Below, one piece after another: positions 83 through 45,703 of a stretch of 64,000 bases of DNA. Numbering within the stretch: the first letter of the stretch is position 1; every line of letters starts with the position of its first letter. The notes under the pieces are model-generated. The model ran no database searches and had not been told where the DNA came from. It saw only the letters and a list, made by a program, of their open reading frames with translations. Origin of the DNA: Thermodesulfobacteriota bacterium (GTDB taxonomy: Bacteria > Desulfobacterota > Desulfomonilia > UBA1062); contig DAITOA010000013.1 in assembly GCA_036834365.1 (NCBI GenBank), positions 141 through 64,140 of the forward strand, written 5' to 3'. Made by a program: the position numbers and the translations under genes.

Positions 83-167
83 TGGTGGAGGGGGGAGGAT
101 TCGAACCTCCGTAGGCTTCGCCGGCAGATTTACAGTCTGCTCCCTTTGGCCGCTCGGGAACCCCTCC
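83..167 (-). tRNA. tRNA-Tyr (anticodon GTA), 85 nt with long variable arm and encoded CCA
   Basis: Reverse complement reads GGAGGGG...CAGACUGUAAAUCUG...GGUUCGAAUCC...CCCCUCCACCA. The 7-bp acceptor stem pairs, the T-loop is GTTCGAATC and the anticodon loop is CUGUAAA. Confidence 0.85.
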
Positions 168-181
168 CGAAATATCTCTCA

Positions 182-257
182 TGGAGCTGGAGATGGGACT
201 CGAACCCGCAACCTGCTGATTACAAATCAGCTGCTCTACCGATTGAGCTACTCCAGC
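182..257 (-). tRNA. tRNA-Thr (anticodon TGT), 76 nt with encoded CCA
   Basis: Reverse complement reads GCUGGAGUAGCUCA...GCUGAUUUGUAAUCAGC...GGUUCGAGUCC...CUCCAGCUCCA. The acceptor stem GCUGGAG/CUCCAGC pairs and the anticodon loop is UUUGUAA. Confidence 0.85.
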
Positions 258-5206: not shown

Positions 5207-6817
5207 ATGGGGAGCACTATGGGCAGATTCGATGCATTCACCTCCAAGGATTTTATAGAACAGGTCTCCATCCTCGGGTCTCTCGATCCTGCACGGGATC
5301 AAGATTCCATTCCCGATATCGTGGCGCTCCTGGGCAGGATACCGGAGCACGAGGCCATCATGCTGGTGATGAAGGACACCCTGAAGAAGCTGTTTTCGGG
5401 CAGCGAAGCCTCGACGGTGCGGTACCTCGCCGCCGGTGACCGGGAGATCCAGAAAATCTGCATCGAGGTGGCCGGCCGGGAAAGATTCGCTTCCGCAGCA
5501 GCGGCCCTGGAAGCCATCGAACGGCAGGCATCAGAAAAGAAGCACTACCGCATCGTCTTCGAGGTGATGAAGACGCTGGCCCAGATCCGACCGGAGGAAT
5601 CCATCGATCTGTTCAGAAAGCACGTGGATCACGAAGATTCCCTCATTGCATCTCTGTGCATCGAGACCCTCGGCGCACTGAACGACGCCCGGTCGTTCGA
5701 GCGCATGCACGGCATCATCATGGAAGCGGAGGATGACTCCCAAGGCGGCCTGTGCGACCTGCCGACAGCCAGCGCCATCAGGACCCTGGGCACATTCCAG
5801 GGCAGGGACGCCGTTGCCTTCTTCATCACCATGCTCCACCACAGGAACCCGGGGGTGCGCAGGGTGATCCACGAGGAGCTCTCCCGCAAGGGCATGGAGG
5901 CCGTGGACGCGCTCAGGGAAGTCTTCCGGGGAGACAGTTCCGACGCCAAGATATTCGCGGCAAACATCCTCGGTCTCATCGGGTCGAAGGAGGCGGCGGA
6001 CGTCCTCGTCCAGGCGCTGGATACGAACCGCAACGCCCATCCCAACATCCGGTATGCCATCTATGAGGCCCTCGGTTGCACCTCCGGCATGGCGGGCCTG
6101 GTCTGCCTGGCCGACGGGCTCGATGAGACGGACGGTATGGTCCTGCTGGCCGTGGTGACGGCCCTGGACATGCGGATGAACCAGTCGATCCTCGACCGGA
6201 TCTCCGAGACGATCAGGAAGGAAACCGGGCACGGCAGGAAGCTCGTGCAGGCGATCGTGGCATCCGGTGCCATGCATATCTTCGAGGGACTCCACCGTGG
6301 CGATGAGGCCATAGCGTCCATGCTGCTGGAAGAGATCAGGAATTCGGGCATCGGCGAGCACATCGCAGGGTACCGGACGATCCTGGAGGGGATGGACTCC
6401 GATCGCGCAAGGAACGACCTGCGGATTATCGATGGACTGCCCGCGAGAGAAGGTGAAAGGCGTATCCTGGCCGTGGACGACTCGAAGGCCATGCTCAACT
6501 TCTACAAGGGTGTGGCCGCTTCCCTGGGCATGGGCATCAGTACGGCCATGAACGGAAAGGAGGCCCTCGATGTCATTGCACTGGAGGAACGGTTCGACCT
6601 GATCATCACCGACATGAACATGCCGGTCATGGACGGGGTCGAGTTCACCGGTCATGTCAGGAGGGACCCGGCCCTTTCTGAGATCCCGATCATCATGATA
6701 ACCACCGAGTCCGAGCGTTCCCAGGAAGATCTGGCCCGCAAGGCCGGGGTGACCCACTTCATGCAGAAACCCTTCGACGCCGGGAAACTCATGGAGAGGA
6801 TCACCGGCTGCCTGTAG
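5207..6817 (+). CDS. HEAT/PBS-lyase-like repeat protein with a C-terminal response-regulator receiver (REC) domain
   Basis: Repeated helical units (DSLIASLCIETLGALND, PGVRRVIHEEL, AKIFAANILGLIGSKEAADVLVQAL, NIRYAIYEALG). The C-terminal ~120 aa is a REC domain (ILAVDDS...DLIITDMNMPVMDG...KPF). Start chosen at the internal ATG MGSTMGRF. Confidence 0.6.
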   Translation: MGSTMGRFDAFTSKDFIEQVSILGSLDPARDQDSIPDIVALLGRIPEHEAIMLVMKDTLKKLFSGSEASTVRYLAAGDREIQKICIEVAGRERFASAAAALEAIERQASEKKHYRIVFEVMKTLAQIRPEESIDLFRKHVDHEDSLIASLCIETLGALNDARSFERMHGIIMEAEDDSQGGLCDLPTASAIRTLGTFQGRDAVAFFITMLHHRNPGVRRVIHEELSRKGMEAVDALREVFRGDSSDAKIFAANILGLIGSKEAADVLVQALDTNRNAHPNIRYAIYEALGCTSGMAGLVCLADGLDETDGMVLLAVVTALDMRMNQSILDRISETIRKETGHGRKLVQAIVASGAMHIFEGLHRGDEAIASMLLEEIRNSGIGEHIAGYRTILEGMDSDRARNDLRIIDGLPAREGERRILAVDDSKAMLNFYKGVAASLGMGISTAMNGKEALDVIALEERFDLIITDMNMPVMDGVEFTGHVRRDPALSEIPIIMITTESERSQEDLARKAGVTHFMQKPFDAGKLMERITGCL

Positions 6818-7004
6818 GAGGGCGGGACCCCTCCGGAGATCCCGGCGGTCACCTCAGGGGCGTCATTGGAATTATTTTGGGCAAACATCAATCATTGCAT
6901 CATCCTATCCGGGAATGTGGTACATGTTTTGCTCAATATCGCCAAGAGGAGACGGACCGGCTCTCCAATAGTCAGGAATAGTACGCGAGGATACGAAGGA
7001 GACT

Positions 7005-7937
7005 ATGGGCACCAAACCAAAGAAGACAGGCAGGGCTTATATCTTCTATATCGCCTGTGTCGTGATGGCGCCGGTTCTGGTATGCGGGTGCAGTCGATTT
7101 CAGACCGGGTCAACCTTCAAGGAAGCGAATGAACTTTTCGGCCAGGGAGACTACGAGGCATCTCTGAAAACATATGAAGGAATCATTGAAAGGCATCCCT
7201 CGGCGGGAGACCGGGTTCTTTTCGAGATGGGGATCATTTACTCGTATCCCAGGAACGAGCAGAAAGACTACCGGAAATCTTTGGAGTGTTTTCAGGAACT
7301 CATAAAGAATTATCCCGAGAGCAGTTACAGATATGACAGTGAGAGGATGATCTTTCATATACAGAATGTCGTCCTGAAGGATCAGCGGATAGCCGAGCAG
7401 CAGACACTGATGGAGACTCTCCAACAGGAGCTTGAAAGCAAAGGGAATGAGATTGCTGCACTGCGGGAAGAAATTGAAGAGCTCCACCGGAAGGTCTCTT
7501 CACTGGAGCCGGGGCCGGCAGACAAGATCCTCATAGAGAAGAAAGAACGGAGATTGTCACTGATGGCAAAGGGCAGTGTCTTCAGGACCTACAAGATAGC
7601 CTTGGGGGGAAACCCGAATGGTCCGAAGGTAAGGCAGGGAGACAACAAAACCCCGGAAGGGACCTACATCATCGACTCAAGGAATATGGACAGCCGCTAC
7701 CACATCTCTCTTCACATTTCATATCCCAACGAGAGAGACAAACAACGGGCGAAAAAACTGGGCGTCCTGCCGGGCGGAGACATCATGATTCACGGCATCA
7801 AGAACGGATTTTCCATGGTCGGCGGACTGCATGCCGGGTCTGACTGGACGAAAGGGTGCATTGCCGTCACGGACGAAGAGATAGAAGAGATTGAAATGCT
7901 GGCCCCGAACGGTACGATTGTCGAGATAAGGCCATAG
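7005..7937 (+). CDS. Lipoprotein L,D-transpeptidase (YkuD/ErfK domain) with N-terminal TPR-like and coiled-coil regions
   Basis: AAGGAG RBS, signal peptide and lipobox (LVCGC). The YkuD catalytic domain has the conserved HG and active-site GCIA(V) motifs (YKIALGG...IMIHG...TKGCIAV). Lower GC than flanks. Confidence 0.75.
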   Translation: MGTKPKKTGRAYIFYIACVVMAPVLVCGCSRFQTGSTFKEANELFGQGDYEASLKTYEGIIERHPSAGDRVLFEMGIIYSYPRNEQKDYRKSLECFQELIKNYPESSYRYDSERMIFHIQNVVLKDQRIAEQQTLMETLQQELESKGNEIAALREEIEELHRKVSSLEPGPADKILIEKKERRLSLMAKGSVFRTYKIALGGNPNGPKVRQGDNKTPEGTYIIDSRNMDSRYHISLHISYPNERDKQRAKKLGVLPGGDIMIHGIKNGFSMVGGLHAGSDWTKGCIAVTDEEIEEIEMLAPNGTIVEIRP

Positions 7938-7957
7938 AGGACCCCATACGCGGAGCC

Positions 7958-9274
7958 ATGTGCAGAACGGTTGAACGCCCGATCCCATCCGGAAGGTTTC
8001 ATCTCATCGTCTTGTGCATACTCGTCTCATATCTCCAGGGATGTGCCGTAATGAACAGTATTCAGAAGATATCATCACCTTTCCCCGTCTATCCGGAAAA
8101 CCAGCTGGAACGGAACACGTTTTCGGTTGTGAAAGGAAGTGACGTCATCGGCCGGATGGCGATCATCAGGCTTGAAGAGGGCGATACCCTTCCGGACATC
8201 GCCCGGCACTTCAGCCTGGGAATCAATGCGGTCAATGCGGCCAATCCAGGGGTGGATGTGTGGGTACCTGATGCAGGAGGGCGTATCGTGCTGCCGCTGC
8301 GGTTCATTCTGCCGGATGCACCCAGAAAGGGTATCGTGATCAACCTGGCTGCCATGAGGCTCTTTCACTATAAAGGAGACAACGACGCACTCGTTGTGAC
8401 CACGTACCCGGTCGGCGTCGGCACCACGGAGCGACCCACCCCCACAGGCCAGATGCAGGTGGTGCGCAAGGTGACCCGGCCGACCTGGTATGTGCCCGCC
8501 TCCATTGCCGAGGATCATCGAAAAAAGGGAGATCCGCTTCCCGCTGCAGTTCTGCCGGGACCCCAGAATCCCCTGGGAGAATACGCGCTCTATCTGAGCA
8601 AGGCGAGTTATCTGATCCATGGCACCAATAAGCCGGCCAGCATCGGCCTGAATGCAACCAACGGCTGCCTGAGACTCTACCCGGAAGACGTGAAAAGGCT
8701 CTACGAGAATACGCCGGTTCACACACCCGTATGCATCGTCAACCAGCCATACCTCATAGGCCAGCGGAACGGGATCGTTTACATGGAGGTCCATGCGTCC
8801 CCGGAAGGCTCAGGGGCCGATGAGCTGGAAAAGATGTACAACAAGTTGAGAACCATTGAGAAGGTCTCCGGGCGTACGCTCGACTGGAAGAATATCGAGA
8901 GGACACTGTCGGAAGCCCGGGGGATTCCTGTGCCCATCCTGGAGATGGAACAGGGGAGATGGTTTGAGCCGACCATCGAAGTGATGCACCCGGGCACATT
9001 ATACGGGAGACCGGAAATTCCGGAATTGAACGCGGAGGCATGGTATGTCTGGGCTGCCGACCTGAACGATAGGACCGAAGCCTTGCGGATTGCCGCCATC
9101 ATTAGCCATCAGGGCCCGCCAATACCGGCACGTGTGATATCAAGGAGCAATGGCTACCGTGTCATCGCCGGCCCCTACAACGATATAAGCGAGGCCAAAG
9201 ATACGGTCAAACGACTGAAGATCGATCTGGAGATAGACGGTATCGTGATCGAACCCGCCGCGAAGCACCCCTGA
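7958..9274 (+). CDS. LysM + YkuD L,D-transpeptidase with C-terminal SPOR domain (lipoprotein signal)
   Basis: Lipobox YLQGC and a LysM-like segment (EEGDTLPDIARHFSLGINAVNAANPG). The YkuD domain carries LIHGTN...NGCLRL. The C-terminal ~75 aa is a SPOR-like fold (RVISRSNGYRVIAGPY...AKD). Confidence 0.75.
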   Translation: MCRTVERPIPSGRFHLIVLCILVSYLQGCAVMNSIQKISSPFPVYPENQLERNTFSVVKGSDVIGRMAIIRLEEGDTLPDIARHFSLGINAVNAANPGVDVWVPDAGGRIVLPLRFILPDAPRKGIVINLAAMRLFHYKGDNDALVVTTYPVGVGTTERPTPTGQMQVVRKVTRPTWYVPASIAEDHRKKGDPLPAAVLPGPQNPLGEYALYLSKASYLIHGTNKPASIGLNATNGCLRLYPEDVKRLYENTPVHTPVCIVNQPYLIGQRNGIVYMEVHASPEGSGADELEKMYNKLRTIEKVSGRTLDWKNIERTLSEARGIPVPILEMEQGRWFEPTIEVMHPGTLYGRPEIPELNAEAWYVWAADLNDRTEALRIAAIISHQGPPIPARVISRSNGYRVIAGPYNDISEAKDTVKRLKIDLEIDGIVIEPAAKHP

Positions 9275-9530
9275 TCAGGTTACAAAAAAGGTGCCGCTGT
9301 GTACGAACTTGTACATCTCTCAAAGGTCATGAATGGAAATTAACGTCCAATCGTGTAATATGTACGCGTCATACGTGTTGGCCTGCATATTGCTGTAAGA
9401 ATATCATGCAATTATTATATGAGAAGCCATGATAATGAAACCATTACCCCCGAAACAATCAATGACCCGGGGGGTAGACAGGCTCAGTTCGTTATCAAAC
9501 AATCCAAGCTGAATAGAACGGAGGTAAGGA

Positions 9531-9832
9531 TGAAAAAGATTCTATTGGGGATTTCCATGGTGATGGTACTCGCTCTCGGCATGTGGGGCTGCGCGACGAC
9601 CAGCGATATCGAGAGGGTCCAGGCGCAGGAAAAGGCGATCGATGCGAAAGCCGATCAGGCCATTCTGGATGCTCAGGCTGCCAAGGCGGCGGCTCAAGAG
9701 GCCCAGGCGAAGGCAGATGCCGCCACCGCCCGTGCCGAAGAAGCCGTGAGGAAGGCAGAGGAGAGGGAGCGGGCTGCGGAGGAGAAGCAGCAGCAGGCTG
9801 AAGCCCTTTTCCAGAAATCGATGAAGAAGTAA
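9531..9832 (+). CDS. Small Ala/Gln/Glu-rich coiled-coil (lipo)protein with C-terminal Lys-Lys; Braun-lipoprotein (Lpp)-like
   Basis: GGAGGT RBS 7 nt upstream. Signal peptide MKKILLGISMVMVLALGMWGC with a lipobox-like Cys, then ~75 aa of heptad-like Ala-rich helix, ending ...FQKSMKK. The longer ORF-track start (9419) lacks an RBS and signal logic. Confidence 0.6.
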
Positions 9833-9884
9833 GTCGGTATTTCAGATACACGCACCCATATCTTCATCTTCAAGGCTTCGACAG

Positions 9885-9917
9885 AGAAGTGGCCGGGTCT
9901 GAGACCCTGCCACTTCT
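9885..9917. terminator. Near-perfect 33-nt palindrome (nested hairpin) between convergent genes; likely bidirectional intrinsic terminator
   Basis: The sequence agaagtggccgggtctgagaccctgccacttct is self-complementary apart from a central loop and one mismatch. It is followed by a T-containing tract and lies between the 3' ends of the Lpp-like gene and the sulfatase gene. Confidence 0.45.
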
Positions 9918-9946
9918 TCCTTATAAACCCGACACGTACCCAGCCC

Positions 9947-11689
9947 TCAGTCCAGATCGAACCGATGGTTGAATGCCAGGAACCTCAGCCAGCTCCCCTG
10001 AACCTTGAGCTTGCCCGAGGCCAGGGCCGCCAGCGGGGTCGTCACCTTGGCCGCCATCTTCCGGTAGGTCAGGGCGTCCACGACGAGCGTGGCTACGGGC
10101 TCGGGCGTCCCGGGCAGCGGGTCCCCCTGAACCACCTCGGCGATACCGTTGCGCACTGTCACGATGAAGCGTCTCTGCTCGTCCGGGAACACGTAATACA
10201 CCGTCTCGTGCACGTCCATGGCCCTTTCCGGCACGAGCCTCGCAGCCATGATGGTGAAGATGGCATCCAGCGGGATATTGGCCACGACGTTCTCGTCCAG
10301 CCTTGCCTGGGCGGGCTTCTCGATGCCGTGCCGGATCTCGTAGGCAGATTCCAGGAGATAGCCCCGGCCGTTGAGGTTGTACAGGGTGGATGCCAGCCCC
10401 TCGTAGCCCCCGGCGAGCTTTTCGTCCAGTTTCCCCTTGAGGCTCCCGGTGGCCAGTCCGCTGTCCCTGAGCTTGGTGAGCAGGTGGATGGCCCAGCGGA
10501 AATCGCCGGTCGTCAGTGCTGCATCGGAGAGCTTCATGACCTGGTCGGCCCCGCCCATGAGCCTGACCTCCCTGCCCGCCGCATCACTGACCTTCATGGG
10601 GTAGAGCTTCTCCGGCCTCCCATCGAACCAGCCCAGGTTGTTGGTGTACACGGCCCGTGCGGACCAGTCCACCTGGCCGTAGAACTCGGTGGTGTAGGGG
10701 AGCCCGGCGAGGTGCGGCGGCAGCGTGACGGTCTCCGCTATGGCGTCCATGTCATACCCCATGTTCGCCAGCCTGACGGTCTCGTCCCTGACCCACTGGA
10801 TGGCGTCCCGGTAGTTGGTCAGGACCTCTGCAATATTCTGCGCACCGTGGACAGGCACGGTATGGCAGGGTACCAGGTGCTCGGGGTTCAGGGCACGCAT
10901 CTCGTCCAGGCTTTTGATCCATCCGTCGATGGGCCTCGGGCTGGCGCCGCGGATGGTGTAGAGGTTCGGGAAGGTCCAGTAGAAATTGTCGGCAGCGATC
11001 ACGGTCCGGTCCTGCGGTACCCAGATGACGAGCTGGTCGTGGGTCTCACCGGGCGCCTCGATGAGCCGGATCTCCAGCCCGCCGAAGACCAGGGTCTTTG
11101 TCCCGGAGAAGGTATTTGTGGGCAGGCGGATGCCCGCGCCCTCCTGGGCGGCCCTGATGTCGGTGCGCCTGCCGATGCCGTTACAGGGCAGGTCATCCAG
11201 GGAGACGTGATCCCCGAACTGACGCCTGCCGCGGATGGTCTCGATGGGCAGGAAGAGCTGGTACTGCTTGTAGAAATGGTCCGTAAAGGTGTCCGTGGCC
11301 CAGATCTGCGGCCTGTCCTCCATCCAGAGGGACGCACCCCCGATGTGGTCTATGTGACTGTGGGTGTAGATGACGGCTTTGACCGGTCCTGCCGGGACGT
11401 TCGCGAGGAGGTCCCGCTTAGCCGCCTCTCCCCTCTTCGGGCTCATGAGGGGGTCCACGATGACGGAGCCCTCGGGGGTATGGATGAGGATCTCGTTGGC
11501 CAGGTCATACCCGACGGCGGCCCACACGTGCTCGGAGATCCGCTCGATGCGTGGCTCTCCGATGAGTTCGCACTGCCTCCTGAGGAGGTCAGGACCTGGC
11601 AGGGCGTCCCTGATCTGCCGGGCCCCGGGTGAACAGCCGATACTCAGTGCAAGGGAAAGGATCAGGACGGTCAGGGAATGCCTTTTCAT
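9947..11689 (-). CDS. Alkyl/aryl-sulfatase of the metallo-beta-lactamase fold (SdsA1/BDS1-like), lipoprotein signal
   Basis: Signal peptide plus Cys (SIGCSP). MBL motif HSHIDHIGG, a long dimerisation region and a C-terminal SCP2-like domain. 580 aa. Confidence 0.75.
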   Translation of the reverse strand: MKRHSLTVLILSLALSIGCSPGARQIRDALPGPDLLRRQCELIGEPRIERISEHVWAAVGYDLANEILIHTPEGSVIVDPLMSPKRGEAAKRDLLANVPAGPVKAVIYTHSHIDHIGGASLWMEDRPQIWATDTFTDHFYKQYQLFLPIETIRGRRQFGDHVSLDDLPCNGIGRRTDIRAAQEGAGIRLPTNTFSGTKTLVFGGLEIRLIEAPGETHDQLVIWVPQDRTVIAADNFYWTFPNLYTIRGASPRPIDGWIKSLDEMRALNPEHLVPCHTVPVHGAQNIAEVLTNYRDAIQWVRDETVRLANMGYDMDAIAETVTLPPHLAGLPYTTEFYGQVDWSARAVYTNNLGWFDGRPEKLYPMKVSDAAGREVRLMGGADQVMKLSDAALTTGDFRWAIHLLTKLRDSGLATGSLKGKLDEKLAGGYEGLASTLYNLNGRGYLLESAYEIRHGIEKPAQARLDENVVANIPLDAIFTIMAARLVPERAMDVHETVYYVFPDEQRRFIVTVRNGIAEVVQGDPLPGTPEPVATLVVDALTYRKMAAKVTTPLAALASGKLKVQGSWLRFLAFNHRFDLD

Positions 11690-11768
11690 GGGACAGCCTC
11701 CTCTGTGATCAGGGACAGTATCATCATGTGTCCCCCCTCAAGAACTCTCGTATCGGGCGAAAGATCGG

Positions 11769-11839
11769 CCTGCCAGTTCCGTGCATCCCGCATGCTTCTT
11801 TAAGAACTCCGCATATGCGGGATGCACGGAACTGGCAGG
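11769..11839. repeat. 71-nt palindromic element: 25-bp perfect inverted repeat with a 21-nt loop; core GTGCATCCCG / CGGGATGCAC
   Basis: Arm 1 cctgccagttccgtgcatcccgcat (11769-11793) is the exact reverse complement of arm 2 atgcgggatgcacggaactggcagg (11815-11839). It is intergenic, downstream of the CorC-family gene and ~80 nt upstream of the sulfatase start. A related element is at 37065-37119. Confidence 0.8.
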
Positions 11840-11895
11840 TTCAATGTTCCTCATCTCAAGCTCGCGTCAGGGTGTCCTGCACCCGGCGAGCCCCC

Positions 11896-13146
11896 TCACT
11901 CCTTCATGGTCACCCGTACCCTCACGATGCGGTTGCCGCGCATGCGCTCGATGCGGAACTGCATGCCGTCGAAGGTCACGGTGTCGCCCTCCTCGGGTAT
12001 GCGGTCGAGCCGGTCGTAGAGGAGGCCGGAGAGCGAGTCGTAGTCGTCGGGGAACTCGTGGTCGATGTAGCGCTCCAGGTCCAGCATGCTCAAGCTGCCC
12101 GTGACCACGAAGCTCGTGCCGCTCACCGGCACGATGGGGGGTCGCACGATGTCGTGCTCGTCGGCGATGTCGCCCGTGATCTCTTCGATGATGTCCTCCA
12201 GCGTGATGCCGCCCTTCACCGTGCCGTACTCGTCCACCACGAAGGCCATGTGGAGGCGCATGTTCTGGAAGTCCACCAGCTGGGTGAAGATGGACTTGGT
12301 CTCGGGCACGAAGTGCGCCTCGCGCAGGCAGTCCTTCACGTGGAAGGCATCCCTCCTGTCGAGGTGGGCCCACACGTCCCGGATATGCAGGTACCCCACG
12401 ATGTTGTCCCGGTCGTCCTTGAAGACGGGATATCTGCTGTAGCTCTTGGTGGTGATCACCTGGACGATCTCGTCGAAGGTGCTGTCCATGGAGAGGAGGA
12501 CCATGTCTCCCAGGGGGAGCATGACCTTGCGAACGGGCACCTCGTCGAGGTCCATGATGGCGGCCATCATCTTGGCCTTGGACTCGGGGAGAAAGCCCTC
12601 CTTGTGCCCCATGGCGATGACCGAACCCACGTCCTCCTCGGAGAACTCGGGGTGCTTCCCGGGCTTCAGGCCGAAGAGCCTGAGCATCCCCTTGGCCATG
12701 AGGGTGAAGACCCTGACGAACGGGTTCAGCACCAGGATGATAATCCTCAGCGGCTGGGAGAAGAGCAGGGTGACCATGTCCGGCCGGTAGGCCGCAATGG
12801 TCTTGGGCGTGATCTCCCCGAAGATGAGCAGCAGCACGGTCATGGCAATGGTGGCATACAGGATGCCGCGCTCTCCGAAAAAGGAGATGAACAGCACCGT
12901 GGCAATGGCCGAGGCGAGCACGTTGACGAAGTTGTTGCCCAGGAGGATGGCGCTGATGAGCCGCTCGGGCTCCTTCAGAATATCCTCCACGAGTTTCGCC
13001 CGGGCGTTCCCCTTCTCCGCCAGGGTACGCAGGCGGAACCGGTTGGCCCTCATGTATGCGGTCTCGCTGCTTGAGAAGAAGGCGGATATCATGATGAGAA
13101 TGACGAGCACTGCGGTGTAGATGATCTCGTCTGCGCCGGTGATCAT
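11896..13146 (-). CDS. CNNM/CorC/HlyC-family transporter-associated protein (DUF21 membrane domain + CBS pair + CorC_HlyC domain)
   Basis: N-terminal four-helix DUF21 with the conserved SSSETA motif. Tandem CBS region and C-terminal transporter-associated domain. Confidence 0.75.
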   Translation of the reverse strand: MITGADEIIYTAVLVILIMISAFFSSSETAYMRANRFRLRTLAEKGNARAKLVEDILKEPERLISAILLGNNFVNVLASAIATVLFISFFGERGILYATIAMTVLLLIFGEITPKTIAAYRPDMVTLLFSQPLRIIILVLNPFVRVFTLMAKGMLRLFGLKPGKHPEFSEEDVGSVIAMGHKEGFLPESKAKMMAAIMDLDEVPVRKVMLPLGDMVLLSMDSTFDEIVQVITTKSYSRYPVFKDDRDNIVGYLHIRDVWAHLDRRDAFHVKDCLREAHFVPETKSIFTQLVDFQNMRLHMAFVVDEYGTVKGGITLEDIIEEITGDIADEHDIVRPPIVPVSGTSFVVTGSLSMLDLERYIDHEFPDDYDSLSGLLYDRLDRIPEEGDTVTFDGMQFRIERMRGNRIVRVRVTMKE

Positions 13147-13171
13147 ATCATTGTCCTACCCTTGAGAGGAT

Positions 13172-16045
13172 TCATTCGAACAGGACCATCTGGCCGGGCC
13201 GGGCCGCACGGTCGCGCTCCGTGGTCTCGCTGGCATACCCCGCAGGGATGCGTTGCACGAATTCAGATACCTCGCCCGCCGGACACACGAGATAGAGCGC
13301 GTCTTTCGTCCTGGTCATGGCTACATAGAAGAGGTTTTGCTCCTCCGTTATGTCCGCACCCGCCAGCGGGAAGATCCCCCTGGCGAGTCCCGTGACGAAC
13401 ACGCAGCCGAACTCCAGTCCCTTGGCGGCATGTGCGGTCAGGACGTGGACCCTCTCGGTTCCCAGGGCGCCCTGGTCGTTGCTCAGCCGGAGGAATTCGA
13501 CGAAGGCGCCCGTGTCGTCCCCGAAGAGACGGGCGTACGAGTAGAAGGGATGGCCGGCGTCGAGGCCGGGAAGCCGGAACATCCCCGAGGCATCGATCCT
13601 GGCTATCCTGTCCGTCAGCGGACCCGTACGGTCGTCGAGCAGCTCCCGGGCCTGCCCTTCCACACCCTTGACGAGCGTCTCCCAGCCCTCGCCGGTCAGG
13701 AGCGAGATACGTTCGCGGATGCCCTTCACCTCGGCCAGGGGCCGGGCATATGCGGTGTCACAGGGGATGCCCGCCCGTTCGAGGGCCTCCAGTACCTGGA
13801 TTGCCTGGCTCCGGGTACGTACGATGACGGCCATGTCGCTCAGGCCCATGTCGCCTTTCGCTGCATCCACGGACAGGTGGGAGAGCCCCCCGGCAAGGGC
13901 CTCGACCTCACGGGCGATGAAATCGTACGGCCTGCCCGTGCGCACGATCCGGACAGTCCCTCCGCCGGAGTCGGCCGTGACCGCTTCATGCCCGATGAAG
14001 GCGTTGGCCGCCCGTGCGATCCCTTTGCCGAAGCGGTATGAAGTCGCCAGGCGCATCCCGGCGCAGGCGGGATGATCCCGCAGGAAGTCGTCGAAGGAGG
14101 CCGGGCTGCTTCCCCGGAAGCCGTATATCGCCTGGTGCGGGTCGCCGATGACCATGACGCTGGAAGAGCCCCGGCTGAGCTTGGCGAGGAAGGCGTACTG
14201 GACCGGGTTGATGTCCTGGAACTCGTCCACCATGACATGGTCCCACCTCCCCTTCCATGCGCCGGCATCGACGAGCCGCATGGCCTCACCGATGAGCCCC
14301 TCGTAGGTATAGTACCCCTTCGCCTTCAGGACGGCAAGGAGCCCCTCCTGCTCCCGGTCGAGCGGAGCGGCCGTGCTCTGCCGGAACATGAGATCCGTCA
14401 CCCATGCCTTCACATCCTTGTCGACGGCCGGGGATGCAACTTTCTCCAGCGTCTCCTCGTCGGCCACCTCGAAGGCGATGCCCGCGTCCCGCATGATCCG
14501 CGCCGCCAGGGCATGGAAGGTACAGACCTCGACGGACGCGTCCCCGAGCCTCTCCGTAATCTCCCGCGCCGCGCGGGTGGTAAAGGTGACGGCCAGGATA
14601 TCCTTTTCTCCTCTGTCGAGGAGCATCCTGATGCGCTCGACCAGCACGCGGGTCTTGCCTGTGCCGGGCCCCGCGACGACCGCCAGCGGGCCTTCCCGCC
14701 AGGCAGCCGCCTGCTGCTGCTCCGGGTTCAATACCGTCTTCTTGCCGGTCGCCGCAGGCGGTTCTTCCACCTTCTTTCTCCTGCCTGAGCGCTTCCGCGC
14801 AGGCACCCCCTCGATGCCTTTGGTGAAGAGCATGTCCTGCTCGTTGTCCGCAAAGACCCGCACCCTGCCGAATGTGCCGTCGTACCCGGCTTCCTTGTGC
14901 ACCTCGCCCGCACGCATGCGCCTCACGGCCAGGGCCAGGGTCTCCCCTGCCACCGAGGCAATCTCGTCGAGGCCGGCATCGAGGAGCAGGGGCAGCTCTC
15001 CGCCGAGACGACCGGTGATCTTCTCATGGACCTCCATCACCCTCTTCGTGGGGGATGCGACCTGCATGATCTCGGCCATGATCTCGGCCAAGGGGATGAG
15101 CGGGAAGAACGGTTTCGCGCTTGAAGGCTTCTCCCCCTCGGAACGCTCCGCGAGCTCCTCCACCCGGTGCAGCACGCCCACGGTGAGCGCTCGTCCGCAC
15201 ACCGGGCACCTGCCCTTGACCTCCCTGGTCCGGTGGGGCTCCAGGACAACCCCGCAGTCCCGGTGCCCGTCCAGGTGGTACTTGCCCTCCTCGGGGAAGA
15301 ATTCCACGGTCCCCACCAGGCCGTCGCCCGTGGCCATGGCCCTGCGGATCGCGTGGTAGTCCAGCGGGGTGTCGAAGACCGTCGCCTCCCGTCCCAGCTT
15401 GTCCGCGGAATGGGCGTCCGAGCAGGAGACGAGGCGGTAGCGGTCCAGGCTCTTCACCATCCAGTTCATGGGCGGGTCCGAGGAGAGCCCCGTCTCCACG
15501 GCGAAGATGTAGGGCTCCAGGTCCTGATAACACTCGGCGATCGAGTCGAAGCCGCTCTTGGATCCCAGGGCAGAGAACCACGGGGTCCAGATGTGGGCCG
15601 GGATCAGGAAGGTTCCCTCGCCCGCCTCCAGCACGACTTCCAGGAGGTTGCGCGAGGTGATGCCCAGGATGGGCCTGCCGTCGGAGAGAATGTTGCCGAT
15701 GGCGGCGAGCGAGGCGGAGATTCTCTTGGCCGAGGCGATGTCCGGCGCCCCGATCACGTGGTGCACCTTGCGCACCTTGTCCCCCTGCTTGTAGATGGTG
15801 CTGATCTCGCCCGTGAGGATGAACCGGGTCGGGCAGTCGCTTTCCCTGAGCCGGTACAGGCCGGGTTCGGACTCGACGAGCTCCTCCTCGATCTCCTTCA
15901 TCCAGGCGGGATGGGTGAGGTCCCCGGTGCCCAGCACGCTGATGCCCTTGCGGACGGCACCCGCCGCAAGCGCCCGAATGGTGAGGCCGGAGCTCGTGGC
16001 ACGGGAGTGGCGGGAGTGTACGTGCAGGTCACAGTAGAATTTCAT
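13172..16045 (-). CDS. Fusion protein: N-terminal PHP-family phosphoesterase (EndoQ/COG1379-like) + Zn-ribbon + C-terminal UvrD/PcrA-family SF1 helicase
   Basis: Starts MKFYCDLHVHSRHS (PHP metal-binding His cluster), then a CPVCG zinc-ribbon-like segment. Residues ~430-957 carry the Walker A AGPGTGKT, DEFQD, a YRFG motif and the C-terminal LTAHAAKGLEF...FYVAMTRTK helicase motifs. 26-nt gap from the CorC-like gene on the same strand. Confidence 0.7.
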   Translation of the reverse strand: MKFYCDLHVHSRHSRATSSGLTIRALAAGAVRKGISVLGTGDLTHPAWMKEIEEELVESEPGLYRLRESDCPTRFILTGEISTIYKQGDKVRKVHHVIGAPDIASAKRISASLAAIGNILSDGRPILGITSRNLLEVVLEAGEGTFLIPAHIWTPWFSALGSKSGFDSIAECYQDLEPYIFAVETGLSSDPPMNWMVKSLDRYRLVSCSDAHSADKLGREATVFDTPLDYHAIRRAMATGDGLVGTVEFFPEEGKYHLDGHRDCGVVLEPHRTREVKGRCPVCGRALTVGVLHRVEELAERSEGEKPSSAKPFFPLIPLAEIMAEIMQVASPTKRVMEVHEKITGRLGGELPLLLDAGLDEIASVAGETLALAVRRMRAGEVHKEAGYDGTFGRVRVFADNEQDMLFTKGIEGVPARKRSGRRKKVEEPPAATGKKTVLNPEQQQAAAWREGPLAVVAGPGTGKTRVLVERIRMLLDRGEKDILAVTFTTRAAREITERLGDASVEVCTFHALAARIMRDAGIAFEVADEETLEKVASPAVDKDVKAWVTDLMFRQSTAAPLDREQEGLLAVLKAKGYYTYEGLIGEAMRLVDAGAWKGRWDHVMVDEFQDINPVQYAFLAKLSRGSSSVMVIGDPHQAIYGFRGSSPASFDDFLRDHPACAGMRLATSYRFGKGIARAANAFIGHEAVTADSGGGTVRIVRTGRPYDFIAREVEALAGGLSHLSVDAAKGDMGLSDMAVIVRTRSQAIQVLEALERAGIPCDTAYARPLAEVKGIRERISLLTGEGWETLVKGVEGQARELLDDRTGPLTDRIARIDASGMFRLPGLDAGHPFYSYARLFGDDTGAFVEFLRLSNDQGALGTERVHVLTAHAAKGLEFGCVFVTGLARGIFPLAGADITEEQNLFYVAMTRTKDALYLVCPAGEVSEFVQRIPAGYASETTERDRAARPGQMVLFE

Positions 16046-16127
16046 GGTGCATCCTTTGTAAGATTCTCGCCATCGAGCAATGTGTCGTCTTGCCGTGGGT
16101 GATCCGTTCTGCTATGAAGGCGGGTAT

Positions 16128-17783
16128 ATGAGCTCGTATCTAAAGTATATTGCATTGCTTTTGGTCTGTGCGTGGATAGTAGCATGCCAGCAGGAGAATC
16201 ACAAGGAGCTTGTCCCGGCCGCCCAGGGTCCGACAACCCCGGCCGTCGAGGAACCGGCCTTCGGCGACGTGCTCGTGCTCTCCTCCATCGGCGACGCCAG
16301 CAACCTCATCCCCATGCTCGCCAGCGACGCATCCTCCCATGCAGTGGCGGGCTTCATCTTCAACGGGCTGGTGAAGTACGATAAGGACTATAAGATCGTG
16401 GGCGACCTCGCCCGGTCGTGGGACATCGAGAACGGCGGCAGGCTTCTGCGCTTCCACCTGCGCAACGACGTGCTCTGGCACGACGGGGAGAAGTTCACGG
16501 CCGGCGACGTCATGTTCACCTACAAACTCATCATCGACCCGAAGACGCCCACCGCCTATGCCGAGAAGTACAAGCTCGTGAAGAATGCCCGCGTCATGGA
16601 CGAGTACACCTTCGAGGTCGAGTACGAGAAGCCCCTGGCTCCGGCGCTCATCAGCTGGGGGGCCCTGCAGATGCTCCCGGAGCACCTGCTCAAAGGCCAG
16701 GACATCGCCAAGACACCCTTCGCCCGGAACCCGGTGGGCACCGGACCCTTCCGGTTCGTGAGCTGGCAGACAGGCCAGAAGATCACGCTGAAGGCCAACG
16801 AGACCTACTTTGACGGCATGCCCTTCCTCACCGGCATCAACTACCGCATCATCCCGGACCAGAACACCGAGTTCCTGGAGCTCAAGGCGGGCAGCATCGA
16901 CATGATGGACCTCACCCCGCTGCAGTACCTCCGCCAGACGGACACGCCCGAGTTCAAAAAGATGTACGCCAAGTACAAGTACCTCTCCGACGGCTACACC
17001 TACCTGGGGTTCAACCTGAAGAGGAAGCCCTTCGACGACGCCCTGGTCCGTCGGGCCGTCGCGTACGCCGTGGACAAGGAGGAGATCATCAAGGGCGTGC
17101 TCCAGGGCCTGGGCGAGGTGGCCACCGGCCCGTACAAGCCGGGCACCTCATGGTACAACACCGGCGTGACCCGGTATCCCCACGACCCCGACAAGGCGAG
17201 GCAGCTCCTCATGGAAGCCGGATACCTGGACCGCAACGGCGACGGCATAGTGGAGAAGGACGGCAGCCCGCTCGTCCTGAACATCATCACCAACCAGGGC
17301 AACCCGCTCCGAGAGAAGACCGCCCAGATCATCCAGCAGCGCCTCAAGGCGGTGGGCATAGACGTGAAGATCCGCATCATCGAGTGGACCGTGTTCCTGA
17401 AGCAGTACGTGGACAAGGGCAACTTCGATGCCGTGATCCTGGGCTGGAACATCCTCCAGGACCCGGACCTGTTCAATGTCTGGCACTCGAGCCAGGCCGT
17501 CTCGGGCGGACTTAATTTCGTGGGCTACAAGGACGAGGAGGTGGACCGGCTCCTCGTGGACGGCAGAGAGACCTACGACAATGCGCGGCGCAAGCAGTGC
17601 TACGACCGCATCCAGGAGATCCTGGCCGAGCAGCAGCCCTACGTGTTCCTCTACGTGCCCTACAGCCTGCCCGCCGTGAGCTCGCGCATCAAAGGCATCG
17701 TCCCGGCGCCGGCAGGCATCACCTACAACCTGGAGAAGTGGTTCGTGCCCAAAGCCATGCAGAAGTATACGGCCCTGCAGTAG
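16128..17783 (+). CDS. ABC transporter substrate-binding protein, family 5 (oligopeptide/dipeptide/nickel type)
   Basis: Signal peptide plus Cys. ~550 aa with SBP_bac_5 features throughout. Start taken at the ATG giving MSSYLKY. Confidence 0.8.
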   Translation: MSSYLKYIALLLVCAWIVACQQENHKELVPAAQGPTTPAVEEPAFGDVLVLSSIGDASNLIPMLASDASSHAVAGFIFNGLVKYDKDYKIVGDLARSWDIENGGRLLRFHLRNDVLWHDGEKFTAGDVMFTYKLIIDPKTPTAYAEKYKLVKNARVMDEYTFEVEYEKPLAPALISWGALQMLPEHLLKGQDIAKTPFARNPVGTGPFRFVSWQTGQKITLKANETYFDGMPFLTGINYRIIPDQNTEFLELKAGSIDMMDLTPLQYLRQTDTPEFKKMYAKYKYLSDGYTYLGFNLKRKPFDDALVRRAVAYAVDKEEIIKGVLQGLGEVATGPYKPGTSWYNTGVTRYPHDPDKARQLLMEAGYLDRNGDGIVEKDGSPLVLNIITNQGNPLREKTAQIIQQRLKAVGIDVKIRIIEWTVFLKQYVDKGNFDAVILGWNILQDPDLFNVWHSSQAVSGGLNFVGYKDEEVDRLLVDGRETYDNARRKQCYDRIQEILAEQQPYVFLYVPYSLPAVSSRIKGIVPAPAGITYNLEKWFVPKAMQKYTALQ

Positions 17784-19634: not shown

Positions 19635-20402
19635 GTGTTCTTCCTGAAGAAACTTGTCAGCGCCATGCTCATGCCCGTGACGATCACCTTTTTCCTCCTG
19701 CTGGCAGGCTCCCTCATGGCCTGGAGCAGGCACCGTGCCCGCACGGGCAGGATCATCATCACCATAACCTCCGTCATCCTCATCCTGCTCGGCTATGGCG
19801 CCGGGACAGGGACGATCCTGGAGAAGCTCGAGTATGCCTATCCTGTGCTCGACCTGAAACAGGCACGCACCGACAGCGTGCAGTGGGTGATCGTGCTGGG
19901 AGGCGGTCATATCTCCGACAGCCGGCTCCCCGTGGGCAGCCAGCTGTCATGGGAGGCACAGATGAGGCTCGTCGAGGGCATCCGCATCCACCGGAACCTC
20001 CCCGGCTCGCGGCTGCTGTTCTCCGGGGGAAAGCTCGGCGAACCCGTTTCCAACGCCGAACTCATGTCACGGATGGCGCAGGGGCTCGGTGTGGATCCAA
20101 ATCACATAGTACTGGAGGATAGGTCCCGGGACACCAAGGACGAGGCGCGCATCATCAAGGGGATGATCGGATCGGCGCCCTGCATCCTGGTCACCTCGGC
20201 GTATCACATGCCGCGGTCCATGGCGCTCTTTGCCGGGCAGGGCATCCACCCCCTGCCCGCTCCCGTGGGGCACCTCACACACCGGCACGAACGATGGCGG
20301 ACAGACTCGTTCTTCCCCAACGCCAGGCACCTGGAGAAGGCCGAACTGGTCCTGCACGAGCTCCTGGGCATGGCGAGCGCGTGGATTATGCACCAGATCT
20401 GA
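19635..20402 (+). CDS. DUF218 (YdcF/ElyC/SanA-family) membrane-anchored protein
   Basis: N-terminal TM helix, then the VIVLGGGH..D...L...RL.EG core typical of DUF218. AGGAGG RBS 8 nt before the GTG start. Confidence 0.65.
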   Translation: MFFLKKLVSAMLMPVTITFFLLLAGSLMAWSRHRARTGRIIITITSVILILLGYGAGTGTILEKLEYAYPVLDLKQARTDSVQWVIVLGGGHISDSRLPVGSQLSWEAQMRLVEGIRIHRNLPGSRLLFSGGKLGEPVSNAELMSRMAQGLGVDPNHIVLEDRSRDTKDEARIIKGMIGSAPCILVTSAYHMPRSMALFAGQGIHPLPAPVGHLTHRHERWRTDSFFPNARHLEKAELVLHELLGMASAWIMHQI

Positions 20403-20421
20403 CCTGTCGGAGGAAGCAAGC

Positions 20422-20874
20422 ATGCTTGACGTTTTCAAGAAATTACTCAAGAACGGGAACAGTGCTCAGTCCCCAAAGGCATATGCCGGCCGGAACCGCA
20501 TCATGGTGGCCACCTGCGCCCTGCTCCTGGAGATGGCGGCCATCGACGGCGAGTTCAGCAGCGAAGAGCAGGATGTCATCCTCGCCGCACTGACGTCCAC
20601 CTACGGCATGAACGGCGAAGATGCGCAGTCCATCATGGAATCGGCCCGAGAAGAGCTCAAGGGCAGCATCGACCTGTGGAGCTTTGCCAGGATCATCAAC
20701 AGTGAATACTCCGAGGAAGAGAAGATCCGTGTGATCGAGACCGTCTGGAAGGTCATCTATGCGGACGGCAGGCTCGACGGGCACGAAGACCACCTTGTGC
20801 ACCGGCTCGCGGACCTGCTGCGCCTGTCCCACGGCCAGCTCATCGATGCCAAGCTGCGGGTGAAGAATAGTTAG
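20422..20874 (+). CDS. TerB-like (tellurite-resistance TerB / DjlA N-domain fold) small cytoplasmic protein
   Basis: 150 aa with paired helical D/E-containing motifs (AAIDGEFSSEEQDVI ... YADGRLDGHEDHLVHRLADLL) characteristic of the TerB-like metal-binding fold. Start at the internal ATG. Confidence 0.5.
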   Translation: MLDVFKKLLKNGNSAQSPKAYAGRNRIMVATCALLLEMAAIDGEFSSEEQDVILAALTSTYGMNGEDAQSIMESAREELKGSIDLWSFARIINSEYSEEEKIRVIETVWKVIYADGRLDGHEDHLVHRLADLLRLSHGQLIDAKLRVKNS

Positions 20875-43909: not shown

Positions 43910-44734
43910 ATGTTATATAATGCATATCAATTTGTTATCCTCCTCATTATAGAAACATTTTTCTTAACCGTGCCCGGCCTGGCATTCGATGATAACGCAG
44001 CGCAACCTCGGTCCCACGATATCGTGAAAACAACGGGCACCATATTGCCGAGAGCGGAACGACCCGGTCTTGCCGTATTGAGGTTCACAAACACCACGCC
44101 CAAGGAACGGGCGATTAATTTCCAGCCCTGGGAATACGGTATTGCCGCCCTGCTCATTACCGACCTGGAAGAAACCGCCATGTTCAACATCGTAGACCGG
44201 GAGAGGATCAATGACATCCTTAAGGAGATCAGGTTACAGAAATCCGGTCTTGTAGATCCGAACTCCGCTGTGGCCATCGGGAAATTGGTCGCTGCAAAAT
44301 ATATTCTCACAGGGACCTTCATGGAGATGAAAGGTCAACTGAAAATTTCCGGACAGGTATATTCCGTGGAGAAAGGCATCCAGCTGGGAGCAACTTCAGT
44401 CACCGGGAAAACAGAGAATTTTTTCCTTTTGGAGAAGGACCTCTTCACAAAAGTCACCCACATCATGGGGGTCGTGCTGGATGACGAAAAACAAAACAAG
44501 ATACTGAACACCTTTGAGACGAAATCCGTATACGCATCACTGAAAAACTATGCCGGGGAAATTGCGTTGATGATGGCAGCCGAATTGAAGAAGGTGGGAA
44601 AGGCGGAGGAGTCGGACCGCCTTGAAAAGGATGCCAAACTGAAGTTCGAAGAGGCCTTGGAATACGATCCGGACTATGAACGGGCAAAGAGAAATCTCGT
44701 CAAGCTCGTGATGGCCATCCCCATGACGTTATGA
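43910..44734 (+). CDS. Periplasmic CsgG-family (CsgG/LpoB-like alpha/beta domain) protein
   Basis: Signal peptide without a lipobox. Core AVLRF.N.T...GIAALLITDLEE...FNIVDRERINDILKEIRLQKSGLVD...AIGKLVAAKYILTGT resembles Pfam CsgG-like domain proteins. Lower GC. Confidence 0.5.
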   Translation: MLYNAYQFVILLIIETFFLTVPGLAFDDNAAQPRSHDIVKTTGTILPRAERPGLAVLRFTNTTPKERAINFQPWEYGIAALLITDLEETAMFNIVDRERINDILKEIRLQKSGLVDPNSAVAIGKLVAAKYILTGTFMEMKGQLKISGQVYSVEKGIQLGATSVTGKTENFFLLEKDLFTKVTHIMGVVLDDEKQNKILNTFETKSVYASLKNYAGEIALMMAAELKKVGKAEESDRLEKDAKLKFEEALEYDPDYERAKRNLVKLVMAIPMTL

Positions 44735-44796
44735 TGCAGCACGAGAGCTGAAGCACTGATGGATGAGATGCAATAAGCACGACCAGGAGTTATGAA

Positions 44797-45633: not shown

Positions 45634-45703
45634 GACCCCCGGTACGCGTTTTCATTGTCATCACGGTAAACAGCGTTTATACTCCGATATGAAAGGATCT
45701 CCC

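Follow-up and report, generated by a model that had tools for sequence, protein, structure and literature searches.

Endonuclease Q (EndoQ) cuts DNA directly 5' of deoxyuridine (dU), deoxyinosine (dI), deoxyxanthosine (dX) and apurinic/apyrimidinic (AP) sites, leaving a 3'-OH and a 5'-phosphate (PMC4357722). In the literature it is treated as essentially archaeal, and the characterised enzymes are all stand-alone proteins. The archaeal representatives are those of Pyrococcus furiosus (PF1551) and Thermococcus kodakarensis (TK0887), with structures 5ZB8 and 7K30-7K33; a stand-alone bacterial EndoQ, from Bacillus pumilus, is described as characterised in a report (Shiraishi 2017) cited in PMC6202378. 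The P. furiosus enzyme (PfuEndoQ) remains on its nicked product, is effectively single-turnover and is thought to recruit downstream factors (PMC5961232). One model of the EndoQ pathway has the damaged segment removed "by helicase activity" (PMC4357722). Here we describe a gene in which an EndoQ module and a helicase are encoded as one chain of 957 amino acids (aa). It lies at positions 13172..16045 on the minus strand of a 64,000-nucleotide stretch from a Thermodesulfobacteriota bacterium (contig DAITOA010000013.1), which is referred to as a whole as the window.

A nickase that works together with a helicase is known from plasmid initiators. The RepD/RepC nickases load a PcrA-type helicase at their own nick: the nickase makes the entry site, stays with the helicase and makes the PcrA motor productive, such that monomeric PcrA becomes processive (PMC3643603, PMC2847222, PMC7038956). 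Nickase and motor are separate proteins in this system, and the nickase is a sequence-specific HUH enzyme that is covalent to the 5' end and serves replication. Mismatch repair (MutH/MutL-UvrD) and nucleotide excision repair (UvrABC-UvrD) follow the same principle, in which a UvrD-type helicase unwinds DNA after incision to remove the damaged strand, and mismatch repair is linked to the β clamp. Both are multi-protein systems with separate sensors, whereas the fusion would carry recognition, incision, motor and clamp tether in one polypeptide, and a single incision 5' of the base lesion is proposed for it. By analogy, the fusion most plausibly works like RepD/RepC-PcrA, with a nickase predicted to be lesion-specific, non-covalent, metal-dependent and joined to its motor.

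The domain-level identification of EndoQ followed by a superfamily 1A (SF1A) helicase is nearly certain. We further propose that the protein is a clamp-tethered DNA-repair enzyme that nicks 5' of deaminated bases and AP sites and unwinds DNA from its own nick, a mechanism to which we assign a probability of roughly 60%. Conservation was assessed in an alignment of 41 diverse fusion proteins of 42-79% identity (alignment A1), and an AlphaFold2 model of the 957-aa protein was built from 41 family sequences (mean predicted local distance difference test, pLDDT, 83.8; predicted template modelling score, pTM, 0.55). The gene and the parts of its product, all on the minus strand, are as follows.

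13172..16045, minus strand: complete open reading frame (ORF; 957 aa plus stop, ATG start) for EndoQ, linker, SF1A helicase and clamp-motif tail
15296..16045, minus strand: EndoQ PHP catalytic domain, about residues 1-250, from the residue map onto PfuEndoQ, alignment A1 and the Foldseek match to 5zb8
15095..15295, minus strand: EndoQ Zn-binding domain, about residues 251-317, with ligands H261, C264, C280 and C283 and with K255 and Y256 conserved
14849..15094, minus strand: EndoQ C-terminal helical domain, about residues 318-399, aligning to PfuEndoQ 304-382 and ending in a conserved GYDGxFG..F β-hairpin
14825..14842, minus strand: internal E402-Q-D-M-L-F407 motif, at a position that corresponds to the clamp-motif-like C-terminal tail of stand-alone and split EndoQ proteins
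14735..14824, minus strand: disordered Lys/Arg-rich linker, residues 408-437, with pLDDT below 50 at 414-436 in the AlphaFold2 model
13271..14734, minus strand: SF1A helicase core, residues 438-925, from Pfam, NCBIfam and Protein Data Bank (PDB) matches and the motifs in alignment A1
13178..13192, minus strand: C-terminal Q952-M-V-L-F956 followed by E, a pentapeptide of the β-sliding-clamp-binding type, one residue from the C-terminus
16052..16056, minus strand: Shine-Dalgarno-like AAGGA, 6 nucleotides (nt) 5' of the ATG at 16045, read from the sequence

The top PDB match of the N-terminal half, by phmmer, is PfuEndoQ (5zb8/7k30; E 1.6e-44, query 6-397 against chain 6-382), and the alignment spans all three EndoQ domains (PHP, Zn-binding and helical). 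In Foldseek the AlphaFold2 model fits 5ZB8 with a template modelling (TM) score of 0.87-0.88 and a root-mean-square deviation of 2.5 Å at 30% identity, and fits the EndoQ-dU DNA complex 7K30 with a TM score of 0.87. The modelled C-terminal domain of the EndoQ half comprises helices 319-378 and strands 383-396. At the other end, the N-terminus MKFYCDLHVHS agrees with the family consensus MxFxADLHxHS in alignment A1.

The residues on which EndoQ activity depends are retained. Mutagenesis of PfuEndoQ identified H8, H10, E76, H84, H139 and D193 as metal ligands and R114 and H195 as essential (PMC5961232). Transferred through the phmmer alignment, these become H8, H10, E80, H95, H151 and D210, and R124 and H212, in the 957-aa protein. 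The base-pocket and wedge residues W144, G169, L170 and S171, taken from PMC5961232 and the review PMC8307549, correspond to W156, G186, L187 and S188, which are invariant in the 41 fusion proteins, and K243 and Y244, which contact DNA, are represented by K255 and Y256. Each of the mapped metal, catalytic, pocket and DNA-contact residues is invariant or at least 90% conserved in alignment A1. From the conserved catalytic residues, the EndoQ half is predicted to cleave directly 5' of dU, dI, dX or AP sites.

A first-pass annotation, made from the sequence alone, had read the gene as a 957-aa fusion of an EndoQ-like PHP domain, a zinc ribbon and a UvrD/PcrA-type helicase, and had pointed to DLHVHSRHS and CPVCG in its N-terminal part. 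The ORF is indeed intact, and the two motifs are present as residues 6-14 and 280-284. The same annotation had considered that the N-terminal domain might instead be a generic PHP domain. All three EndoQ domains align and superpose and the essential residues are kept, as described above. A generic PHP domain of the Pol X or histidinol-phosphatase type is rejected on the basis of the full-length EndoQ match, the fold fit at a TM score of 0.87 and the retained pocket residues.

The EndoQ half differs from the archaeal enzymes in several respects, despite having the same module, the same catalytic, metal and pocket residues, and a clamp motif at the extreme C-terminus (a PCNA-interacting protein, PIP, box in archaea and QMVLF here). 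In the fusion, about 490 aa of helicase lie between the EndoQ module and the clamp motif, and the clamp motif is of the bacterial β type. Three contacts are changed (Pfu R251 to D263, K276 to T288 and Y377 to F392). The zinc site has four ligands in an HCCC arrangement (H261, C264, C280 and C283), in contrast to the C4 site of archaeal EndoQ. The His ligand occurs in 207 of the 208 long family members with a matchable pattern, and also in split and in close stand-alone bacterial forms. The substitution of His for Cys is thus, as judged from these sequences, a bacterial-clade trait, that is, a variant ligand set rather than a loss or defect.

The NCBIfam model for EndoQ, TIGR00375, is covered almost end to end (profile positions 3-374 of 374) and scores 163.9 bits, below its curated equivalog cut-off of 326.6 bits. 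Because of this score, the N-terminal half is filed as a diverged bacterial subfamily of the EndoQ family and not as a TIGR00375 equivalog. For the same reason the EndoQ half goes unnamed in annotation. Protein P0001, 100% identical to the 957-aa product, carries the NCBI name [quoted passage not shown], which hides the EndoQ half. Homologs, where named, are called "UvrD-helicase domain-containing protein", "AAA family ATPase", "PcrA" or "TIGR00375 family". The N-terminal half had no match in the Pfam set that was searched, a set without PF27218; that family is precomputed on P0001 and on all homologs.

Stand-alone bacterial EndoQ proteins have a homologous module and no helicase. Close relatives (loci L074 and L075) have the HCCC site and a QxxLF-type tail. 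Bacillus-type EndoQ is more distant: a plasmid-borne Brevibacillus "endonuclease Q family protein" is 28% identical to the EndoQ half.

The C-terminal half matches Pfam families UvrD-helicase (PF00580), AAA_19 (PF13245) and UvrD_C (PF13361), all above the Pfam cut-offs (E 2e-43 to 1e-22). Its nearest solved helicases are Mycobacterium tuberculosis UvrD1, PcrA, UvrD and Rep (PDB E 1e-38 to 7e-30), and models of superfamily 1B helicases match much more weakly (RecD2, 1.3e-07). The helicase motifs comprise the Q-motif (Q443), Walker A (G459-T465, GPGTGKT), motif Ia (T487-T489), DEFQD (607-611), motif III (G634-G645, GDPHQAIYGFRG), YR (670-671) and motifs V and VI (T870-R912). The first-pass claim that all SF1 motifs are present holds across the family, since the Q-motif and motifs I, Ia, II, III, IV, V and VI are invariant or nearly so in alignment A1. 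The helicase had also been said to continue directly from the EndoQ part. The two do form a single chain, but a disordered basic linker of about 30 aa separates them. This linker varies across the family in sequence and in length, with 52-169 aa between the anchor motif and Walker A.

Foldseek places the helicase half in the four-subdomain 1A/1B/2A/2B fold of UvrD, PcrA and Rep (target-normalised TM score, TMt, 0.58-0.65; 0.65 for UvrD 2is1). The fusion helicase has the SF1A motifs and this fold in common with UvrD, PcrA and Rep, but scores far under their NCBIfam equivalog cut-offs (pcrA 190 of 911 bits, uvrD 169 of 1144, rep 150 of 951). Compared with M. tuberculosis UvrD1, its accessory regions are about half size (1B, 48 versus 81 aa; 2B, 78 versus 167 aa), and motif VI is followed by 36 aa instead of about 120, so that the C-terminal partner domain is absent. 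By these sequence comparisons it is a separate SF1A subfamily and not an ortholog of UvrD, PcrA or Rep. UvrD1, PcrA, UvrD and Rep are 3'-to-5' SF1A enzymes, and membership in SF1A suggests that the fusion helicase likewise translocates and unwinds in the 3'-to-5' direction. UvrD can start at nicks, and the same ability is expected of the fusion helicase.

In Rep and UvrD, autoinhibition is exerted by the 2B domain, and in UvrD or PcrA a C-terminal region contacts UvrB, MutL or RNA polymerase. It is plausible that the fusion helicase is a motor stripped of both elements, with its "partner" fused in cis. The reduced accessory domains also bear on what the motor does. The ATPase might serve as a translocase or turnover motor that slides the enzyme along DNA for lesion scanning or strips EndoQ or other proteins from the nick, with strand displacement left to Pol I. 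With 1B and 2B at about half size and the partner domain missing, unwinding cannot be read across from UvrD. UvrD-family proteins are established protein-displacement motors (UvrD strips RecA and backtracks RNA polymerase, and HelD recycles RNA polymerase), and weak NCBIfam matches to HelD/HelR were obtained. The persistence of PfuEndoQ on its nicked product would also give such a motor work to do. However, the helicase motifs, among them motif III and the block of motifs V and VI, are all invariant, and the nickase-PcrA precedent shows true unwinding. We therefore consider a pure translocase unlikely, if still worth keeping in mind. It differs from unwinding at the enzyme's own nick in motor output alone; the two overlap in part and are not mutually exclusive.

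A UvrD-like motor and a nuclease in one chain also recall AddA, AdnB and RecB, which are present among the fold and sequence matches, and PHP domains elsewhere are 3'-5' exonucleases. The protein could accordingly be pictured as an AddAB/AdnAB/RecBCD-like processor of DNA ends, whose helicase feeds a PHP domain with non-specific exonuclease or phosphoesterase activity, similar to those of Pol X or Pol III. We judge this very improbable. The nucleases of AddAB, AdnAB, RecBCD and of the Gabija proteins GajAB, which combine a UvrD-like motor with a nuclease as well, are of the RecB family or TOPRIM type and not PHP, and domain order and partners are different. No RecB-family PD-(D/E)xK nuclease domain was found in the 957-aa protein with Pfam or NCBIfam, and its nuclease is at the N-terminus instead of the C-terminus. 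The Zn-binding and helical domains specific to EndoQ are invariant, as are the pocket residues W156, G186, L187 and S188. EndoQ fits with a TM score of 0.87, versus TMt 0.29-0.48 for AddA and RecB, which match in the motor region alone. Among 138 immediate neighbour genes (see below), none is an AddB- or RecC-like partner.

The third element that supports a clamp-tethered repair enzyme is the C-terminal tail. QMVLF fits the bacterial β-clamp consensus QL[S/D]LF, and the consensus tail of alignment A1 is QLxLF, with Q952 invariant and L955 and F956 at least 90% conserved. Of 241 family members (at least 900 aa long), 194 have the pattern Q[LM]x[LFMI][FL] within 20 residues of the C-terminus, versus 19 of 12,332 internal control windows (0.15%). 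Among these 194, the strict form is found in 172 and the motif is at the exact C-terminus in 110. Members without it mostly have near variants, such as QYSLF, QPELF or QLSLI. The QMVLF tail is thus predicted to dock on the β clamp. In archaea, EndoQ contacts PCNA by means of a PIP box at its C-terminus, with a dissociation constant of 55 nM, and is stimulated in a PIP-dependent manner (PMC4858679).

The tail motif of long bacterial EndoQ homologs was itself published in 2016. Putative β-clamp motifs were tabulated for 44 "bacterial EndoQ homologs" (Shiraishi et al. 2016, PMC4858679 Suppl. Fig. S1), 10 of them short (motif end at 405-464) and 34 long (945-1244). The long ones include proteins of Desulfomonile tiedjei, Rhodothermus marinus, Inquilinus limosus, Zymomonas mobilis and Geobacter metallireducens. 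The words helicase, UvrD and fusion are absent from that paper and its supplement. What is new here is the quantification of the motif and its comparison among split, stand-alone and internal positions.

In two-gene versions of the system, described below, the EndoQ ORFs of loci L062, L073 and L080 end in QQMVLF, PQIALFA and GQVGLGF directly before the stop, and the helicase ORFs end in QLKLF, QLNLF, QASLF and QLTLF. At L061 a clamp-motif-like tail is found on the helicase ORF alone, and the EndoQ ORF ends in KKKFRKPKT. Stand-alone EndoQ relatives end in GQARLF. In the 957-aa protein, the corresponding position is occupied by the internal EQDMLF. This motif is kept as DNE.D[ML]LF in the nearest 45 or so relatives. 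Internal clamp motifs of the QxxMF or QxxLF type are known in other replication proteins, and EQDMLF resembles them. It may be a second, weaker or degenerate clamp site, or a relic of the fusion.

The fusion is widespread. At least 120 full-length homologs were found at 40-79% identity (697-2158 bits, E ≤1.7e-203), and a scan of one genome per GTDB species confirmed the fusion in no fewer than 592 species representatives, which belong to at least 14 phyla. A search with the EndoQ half alone against 1.84 billion representative sequences gave 1,008 matches at E ≤1e-30. About 126 of the best 150 of these are 850-1258 aa long with an N-terminal EndoQ, and 3 are of stand-alone size. The family comprises about 1,000 clusters at 50% identity.

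Neighbourhoods and split forms were analysed in the best 80 of the at least 592 loci, or 81 with the window. These 80 include Actinomycetota (Micromonospora, Actinoplanes, Streptomonospora) and Bacillota (Faecalicatena, Pseudoflavonifractor, Neomoorella, Propionispora), together with Bacteroidota, Planctomycetota, Chloroflexota, Acidobacteriota, Spirochaetota, Melainabacteria, Fibrobacterota, Latescibacterota, Omnitrophota, Thermodesulfobacteriota, Myxococcota and Pseudomonadota. The homolog list additionally contains Rhodothermus and Verrucomicrobiota. Such a range, covering at least 14 phyla of Bacteria, is at odds with published accounts in which EndoQ is archaeal and confined, outside archaea, to "some limited groups" of Bacteria. 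It also runs counter to the rarity implied by the first-pass annotation. The novelty that the annotation implied for the architecture does not stand either, because the long homologs were listed with their clamp motif in the 2016 supplement and a dedicated Pfam family, PF27218, exists. The gene is an ordinary member of a large, catalogued and biochemically uncharacterised bacterial family.

At about 8 of the 80 loci, EndoQ and helicase are encoded by separate adjoining ORFs. Four of these are clean two-gene forms (L062:6-3149, L073:2219-5007, L080:6001-9284 and L061:6001-8929), in which the EndoQ ORF stops in the linker right after GYDGxFG..F, whereupon the helicase ORF begins at a start of its own. 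They constitute independent "Rosetta-stone" support for a functional EndoQ-helicase partnership. Other interruptions are of a different kind. In L025 (about 6900-6940, from a Ruminococcaceae metagenome-assembled genome, MAG), CAG has become TAG at the conserved Gln of the helicase Q-motif (LNPEQ*AAV), and this locus is a pseudogene or contains a sequencing error. L060 and L077, on actinomycete MAG contigs, have a frameshift-like appearance. Thus the ORF, for which splitting by a frameshift in related genomes had been raised, is intact in most relatives, and a frameshift or pseudogene is rejected for the window gene by its own intact ORF.

Functional coupling of EndoQ and helicase is indicated by retention of the fusion in 592 or more species representatives, by its predominance among the 150 proteins closest to the EndoQ half, and by the adjoining positions of the two halves in the four two-gene loci. 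A broader proposal is that the helicase-fused, β-clamp-tethered enzyme is the main form of EndoQ in bacteria and constitutes a self-contained, glycosylase-independent "nick-and-unwind" pathway coupled to the replisome clamp. We offer this tentatively, with slightly less than even confidence.

Helicase-nuclease combinations are also common in antiviral systems, and we considered whether the fusion could be an anti-phage or foreign-DNA nuclease-helicase, similar to Gabija or Nhi, in which EndoQ senses uracil, hypoxanthine or abnormal invading DNA and the helicase drives processive destruction. The helicase half does match many PADLOC models of GajB and a model of a helicase associated with defence-associated reverse transcriptases (DRT), with E values down to 1.8e-57. 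Moreover, according to a review (PMC8307549), bacterial EndoQ "may participate in antiviral defense", and the phage protein Ugi does not inhibit it. However, the PADLOC matches are confined to the generic UvrD core, and the EndoQ half has no match to a defence model. Neither a GajA-type ATPase-TOPRIM gene nor another defence partner or defence context was found in the window or the best 80 loci. The 138 immediate neighbours belong to 137 different Pfam families, and the most frequent non-focal gene cluster recurs in 10 of 81 loci at most.

The genomic setting likewise points away from defence. Flanking genes are kept across genera inside families, with 4-6 common clusters in Micromonosporaceae and 7 in Caldilineaceae, so that the gene does not sit in a variable island. 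No match was obtained among 50,697 phage records. A search of 72,556 plasmids also found no fusion, and its one match is the stand-alone EndoQ mentioned above, on a 733-kb Brevibacillus replicon. Because flanks are kept within families and there is no phage match and no plasmid-borne fusion, we conclude that this is a vertically inherited chromosomal housekeeping gene and not a mobile or defence-island gene. A C-terminal β-clamp motif, moreover, is typical of replication and repair proteins. A role in defence is consequently quite unlikely, although we rate it above that of an end processor.

For the favoured reading, a clamp-tethered repair enzyme that unwinds from its own nick, the following sequence of events can be proposed. 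A deaminated base (uracil, hypoxanthine or xanthine) or an abasic site would be flipped into the pocket of the EndoQ module, which would cut the phosphodiester bond directly 5' of the lesion, giving a 3'-OH and a lesion-bearing 5'-phosphate. The flexible basic linker would tether the minimal UvrD/PcrA-type 3'-to-5' helicase, which could engage the fresh EndoQ nick. Running 3' to 5' on the intact strand past the lesion, the motor would peel the lesion-bearing strand from its 5' end and would probably dislodge the product-bound EndoQ module as well. Nickase-loaded PcrA works with the same unwinding geometry in rolling-circle replication (PMC3643603, PMC2847222, PMC7038956), as does UvrD in mismatch repair and in nucleotide excision repair. 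Pol I or a 5' nuclease such as RecJ might then process the flap or gap left by the fusion, before ligase acts. Meanwhile, QMVLF would dock the enzyme on the β clamp, as a bacterial counterpart of the PIP-box contact with PCNA that stimulates archaeal EndoQ. Such a tail could bring the enzyme to clamps located at replication forks or behind them and pass the 3'-OH to clamp-bound polymerase and ligase.

The components of this scheme are of unequal standing. Directly observed are the domain identities, the conserved catalytic residues, the clamp motif with its conservation, the distribution and the two-gene versions; substrate range, helicase polarity and tracked strand, clamp binding and the downstream steps are what we infer from them. 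Several points weigh against the scheme. A diverged EndoQ subfamily could have a substrate range different from that of the archaeal enzymes. At a pTM of 0.55, the relative placement of the EndoQ and helicase halves in the model is unreliable, and a hand-off from active site to helicase has no structural support from it. The clamp contact is predicted from a sequence pattern, and the internal EQDMLF is non-canonical, with a hydrophobic residue followed by LF at that position in just about half of 234 family members. A single 5' nick followed by unwinding gives a 5' flap and not an excised oligonucleotide; at least one further nuclease is therefore needed. No 5'-flap nuclease (Pol I 5' nuclease or RecJ) is encoded among the 138 immediate neighbours scanned. 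Finally, no biochemical or genetic study of any member of the fusion family was found in the searchable literature, where the fusion is neither discussed nor tested. This agrees with the first-pass statement that PHP-helicase fusions are biochemically uncharacterised.

If the scheme is correct, the fusion and its two-gene versions would answer, for bacteria, the question of what acts after the EndoQ nick. They would provide a one-protein, glycosylase-independent route for removal of uracil, hypoxanthine and abasic sites in many bacteria, and a natural case of a nickase that loads its own helicase. Carriers include gut Clostridia, actinomycetes, sulfate reducers, Zymomonas and Rhodothermus. Because EndoQ is already in use as a reagent for detection of deamination, a processive variant could be useful. 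The value of the present analysis lies in a testable hypothesis rather than in a discovery, given that the family is already in databases and that its clamp motif was tabulated in 2016.

The gene immediately downstream of the EndoQ-helicase gene (11896..13146, minus strand) is co-oriented with it and encodes a membrane protein with CNNM, CBS and CorC_HlyC domains (Pfam). The spacer between the EndoQ-helicase stop and this corC gene is 25 nt (13147-13171); the first-pass figure of 26 nt corresponds to the distance from coordinate to coordinate. The corC gene has its own AGGA, and a terminator-like site was not seen between the two genes. Because the spacer is 25 nt long and has no terminator-like site, joint transcription of the two genes is plausible. 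A scan for promoters and terminators over 9800-16400 gave nothing informative.

The CorC protein had been flagged as an odd partner of the fusion. Among the best 80 loci, corC adjoins the fusion gene in the closest relative alone (L014:8962-10212; CorC 61.5% identical), as it does in the window, so that the arrangement is local synteny. CorC/CNNM is rejected as a functional partner, because the adjacency is limited to these two loci and no neighbour is recurrent.

A second candidate partner came from two loci of Desulfobacterales (L026:1290-4816 and L050:4405-5523), where the gene upstream of the fusion encodes about 372 aa and, in L026, a gene of about 800 aa lies beyond it. Matches to all three domains of DnaN were obtained for two of the 138 neighbours, which are placed at L026 and L050 by protein size. 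A dedicated β-clamp paralog as neighbour is rejected: the size of these proteins and the gene of about 800 aa indicate that this is probably an ordinary dnaN-gyrB origin region.

Upstream of the EndoQ-helicase gene and divergent from it are genes for an ATP-binding cassette (ABC) transporter of the peptide/nickel type (Opp/Dpp), comprising SBP_bac_5 and two permeases. The longest-ORF start of the SBP_bac_5 lipoprotein gene (16080-17783, plus strand) is probably too far upstream. An internal Met of this protein (MSSYLKYIALLLVCAWIVAC...) resembles the start of a lipoprotein signal peptide. With the internal start, the SBP_bac_5 and EndoQ-helicase genes would have about 80 nt of divergent intergenic space in common. 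A TerB-domain protein (E 1.2e-29) that is unrelated to the EndoQ-helicase is encoded at 20230-20874 (plus strand), downstream of the ABC transporter genes. On the other side, past corC, lies a gene for an alkyl-sulfatase-type metallo-β-lactamase.

The G+C content of the window is about 0.62 except at 6001-10000 (0.55) and 44001-46000 (0.53), where it is lower. The first of these regions encodes two YkuD L,D-transpeptidases (7005-7937 and 7958-9274) and an Lpp-like alanine-zipper lipoprotein (9419-9832). A tandem of tRNA-Tyr (GTA) and tRNA-Thr (TGT) genes at 83-257 (minus strand) accounts for the sole Rfam and ARAGORN matches in the window.

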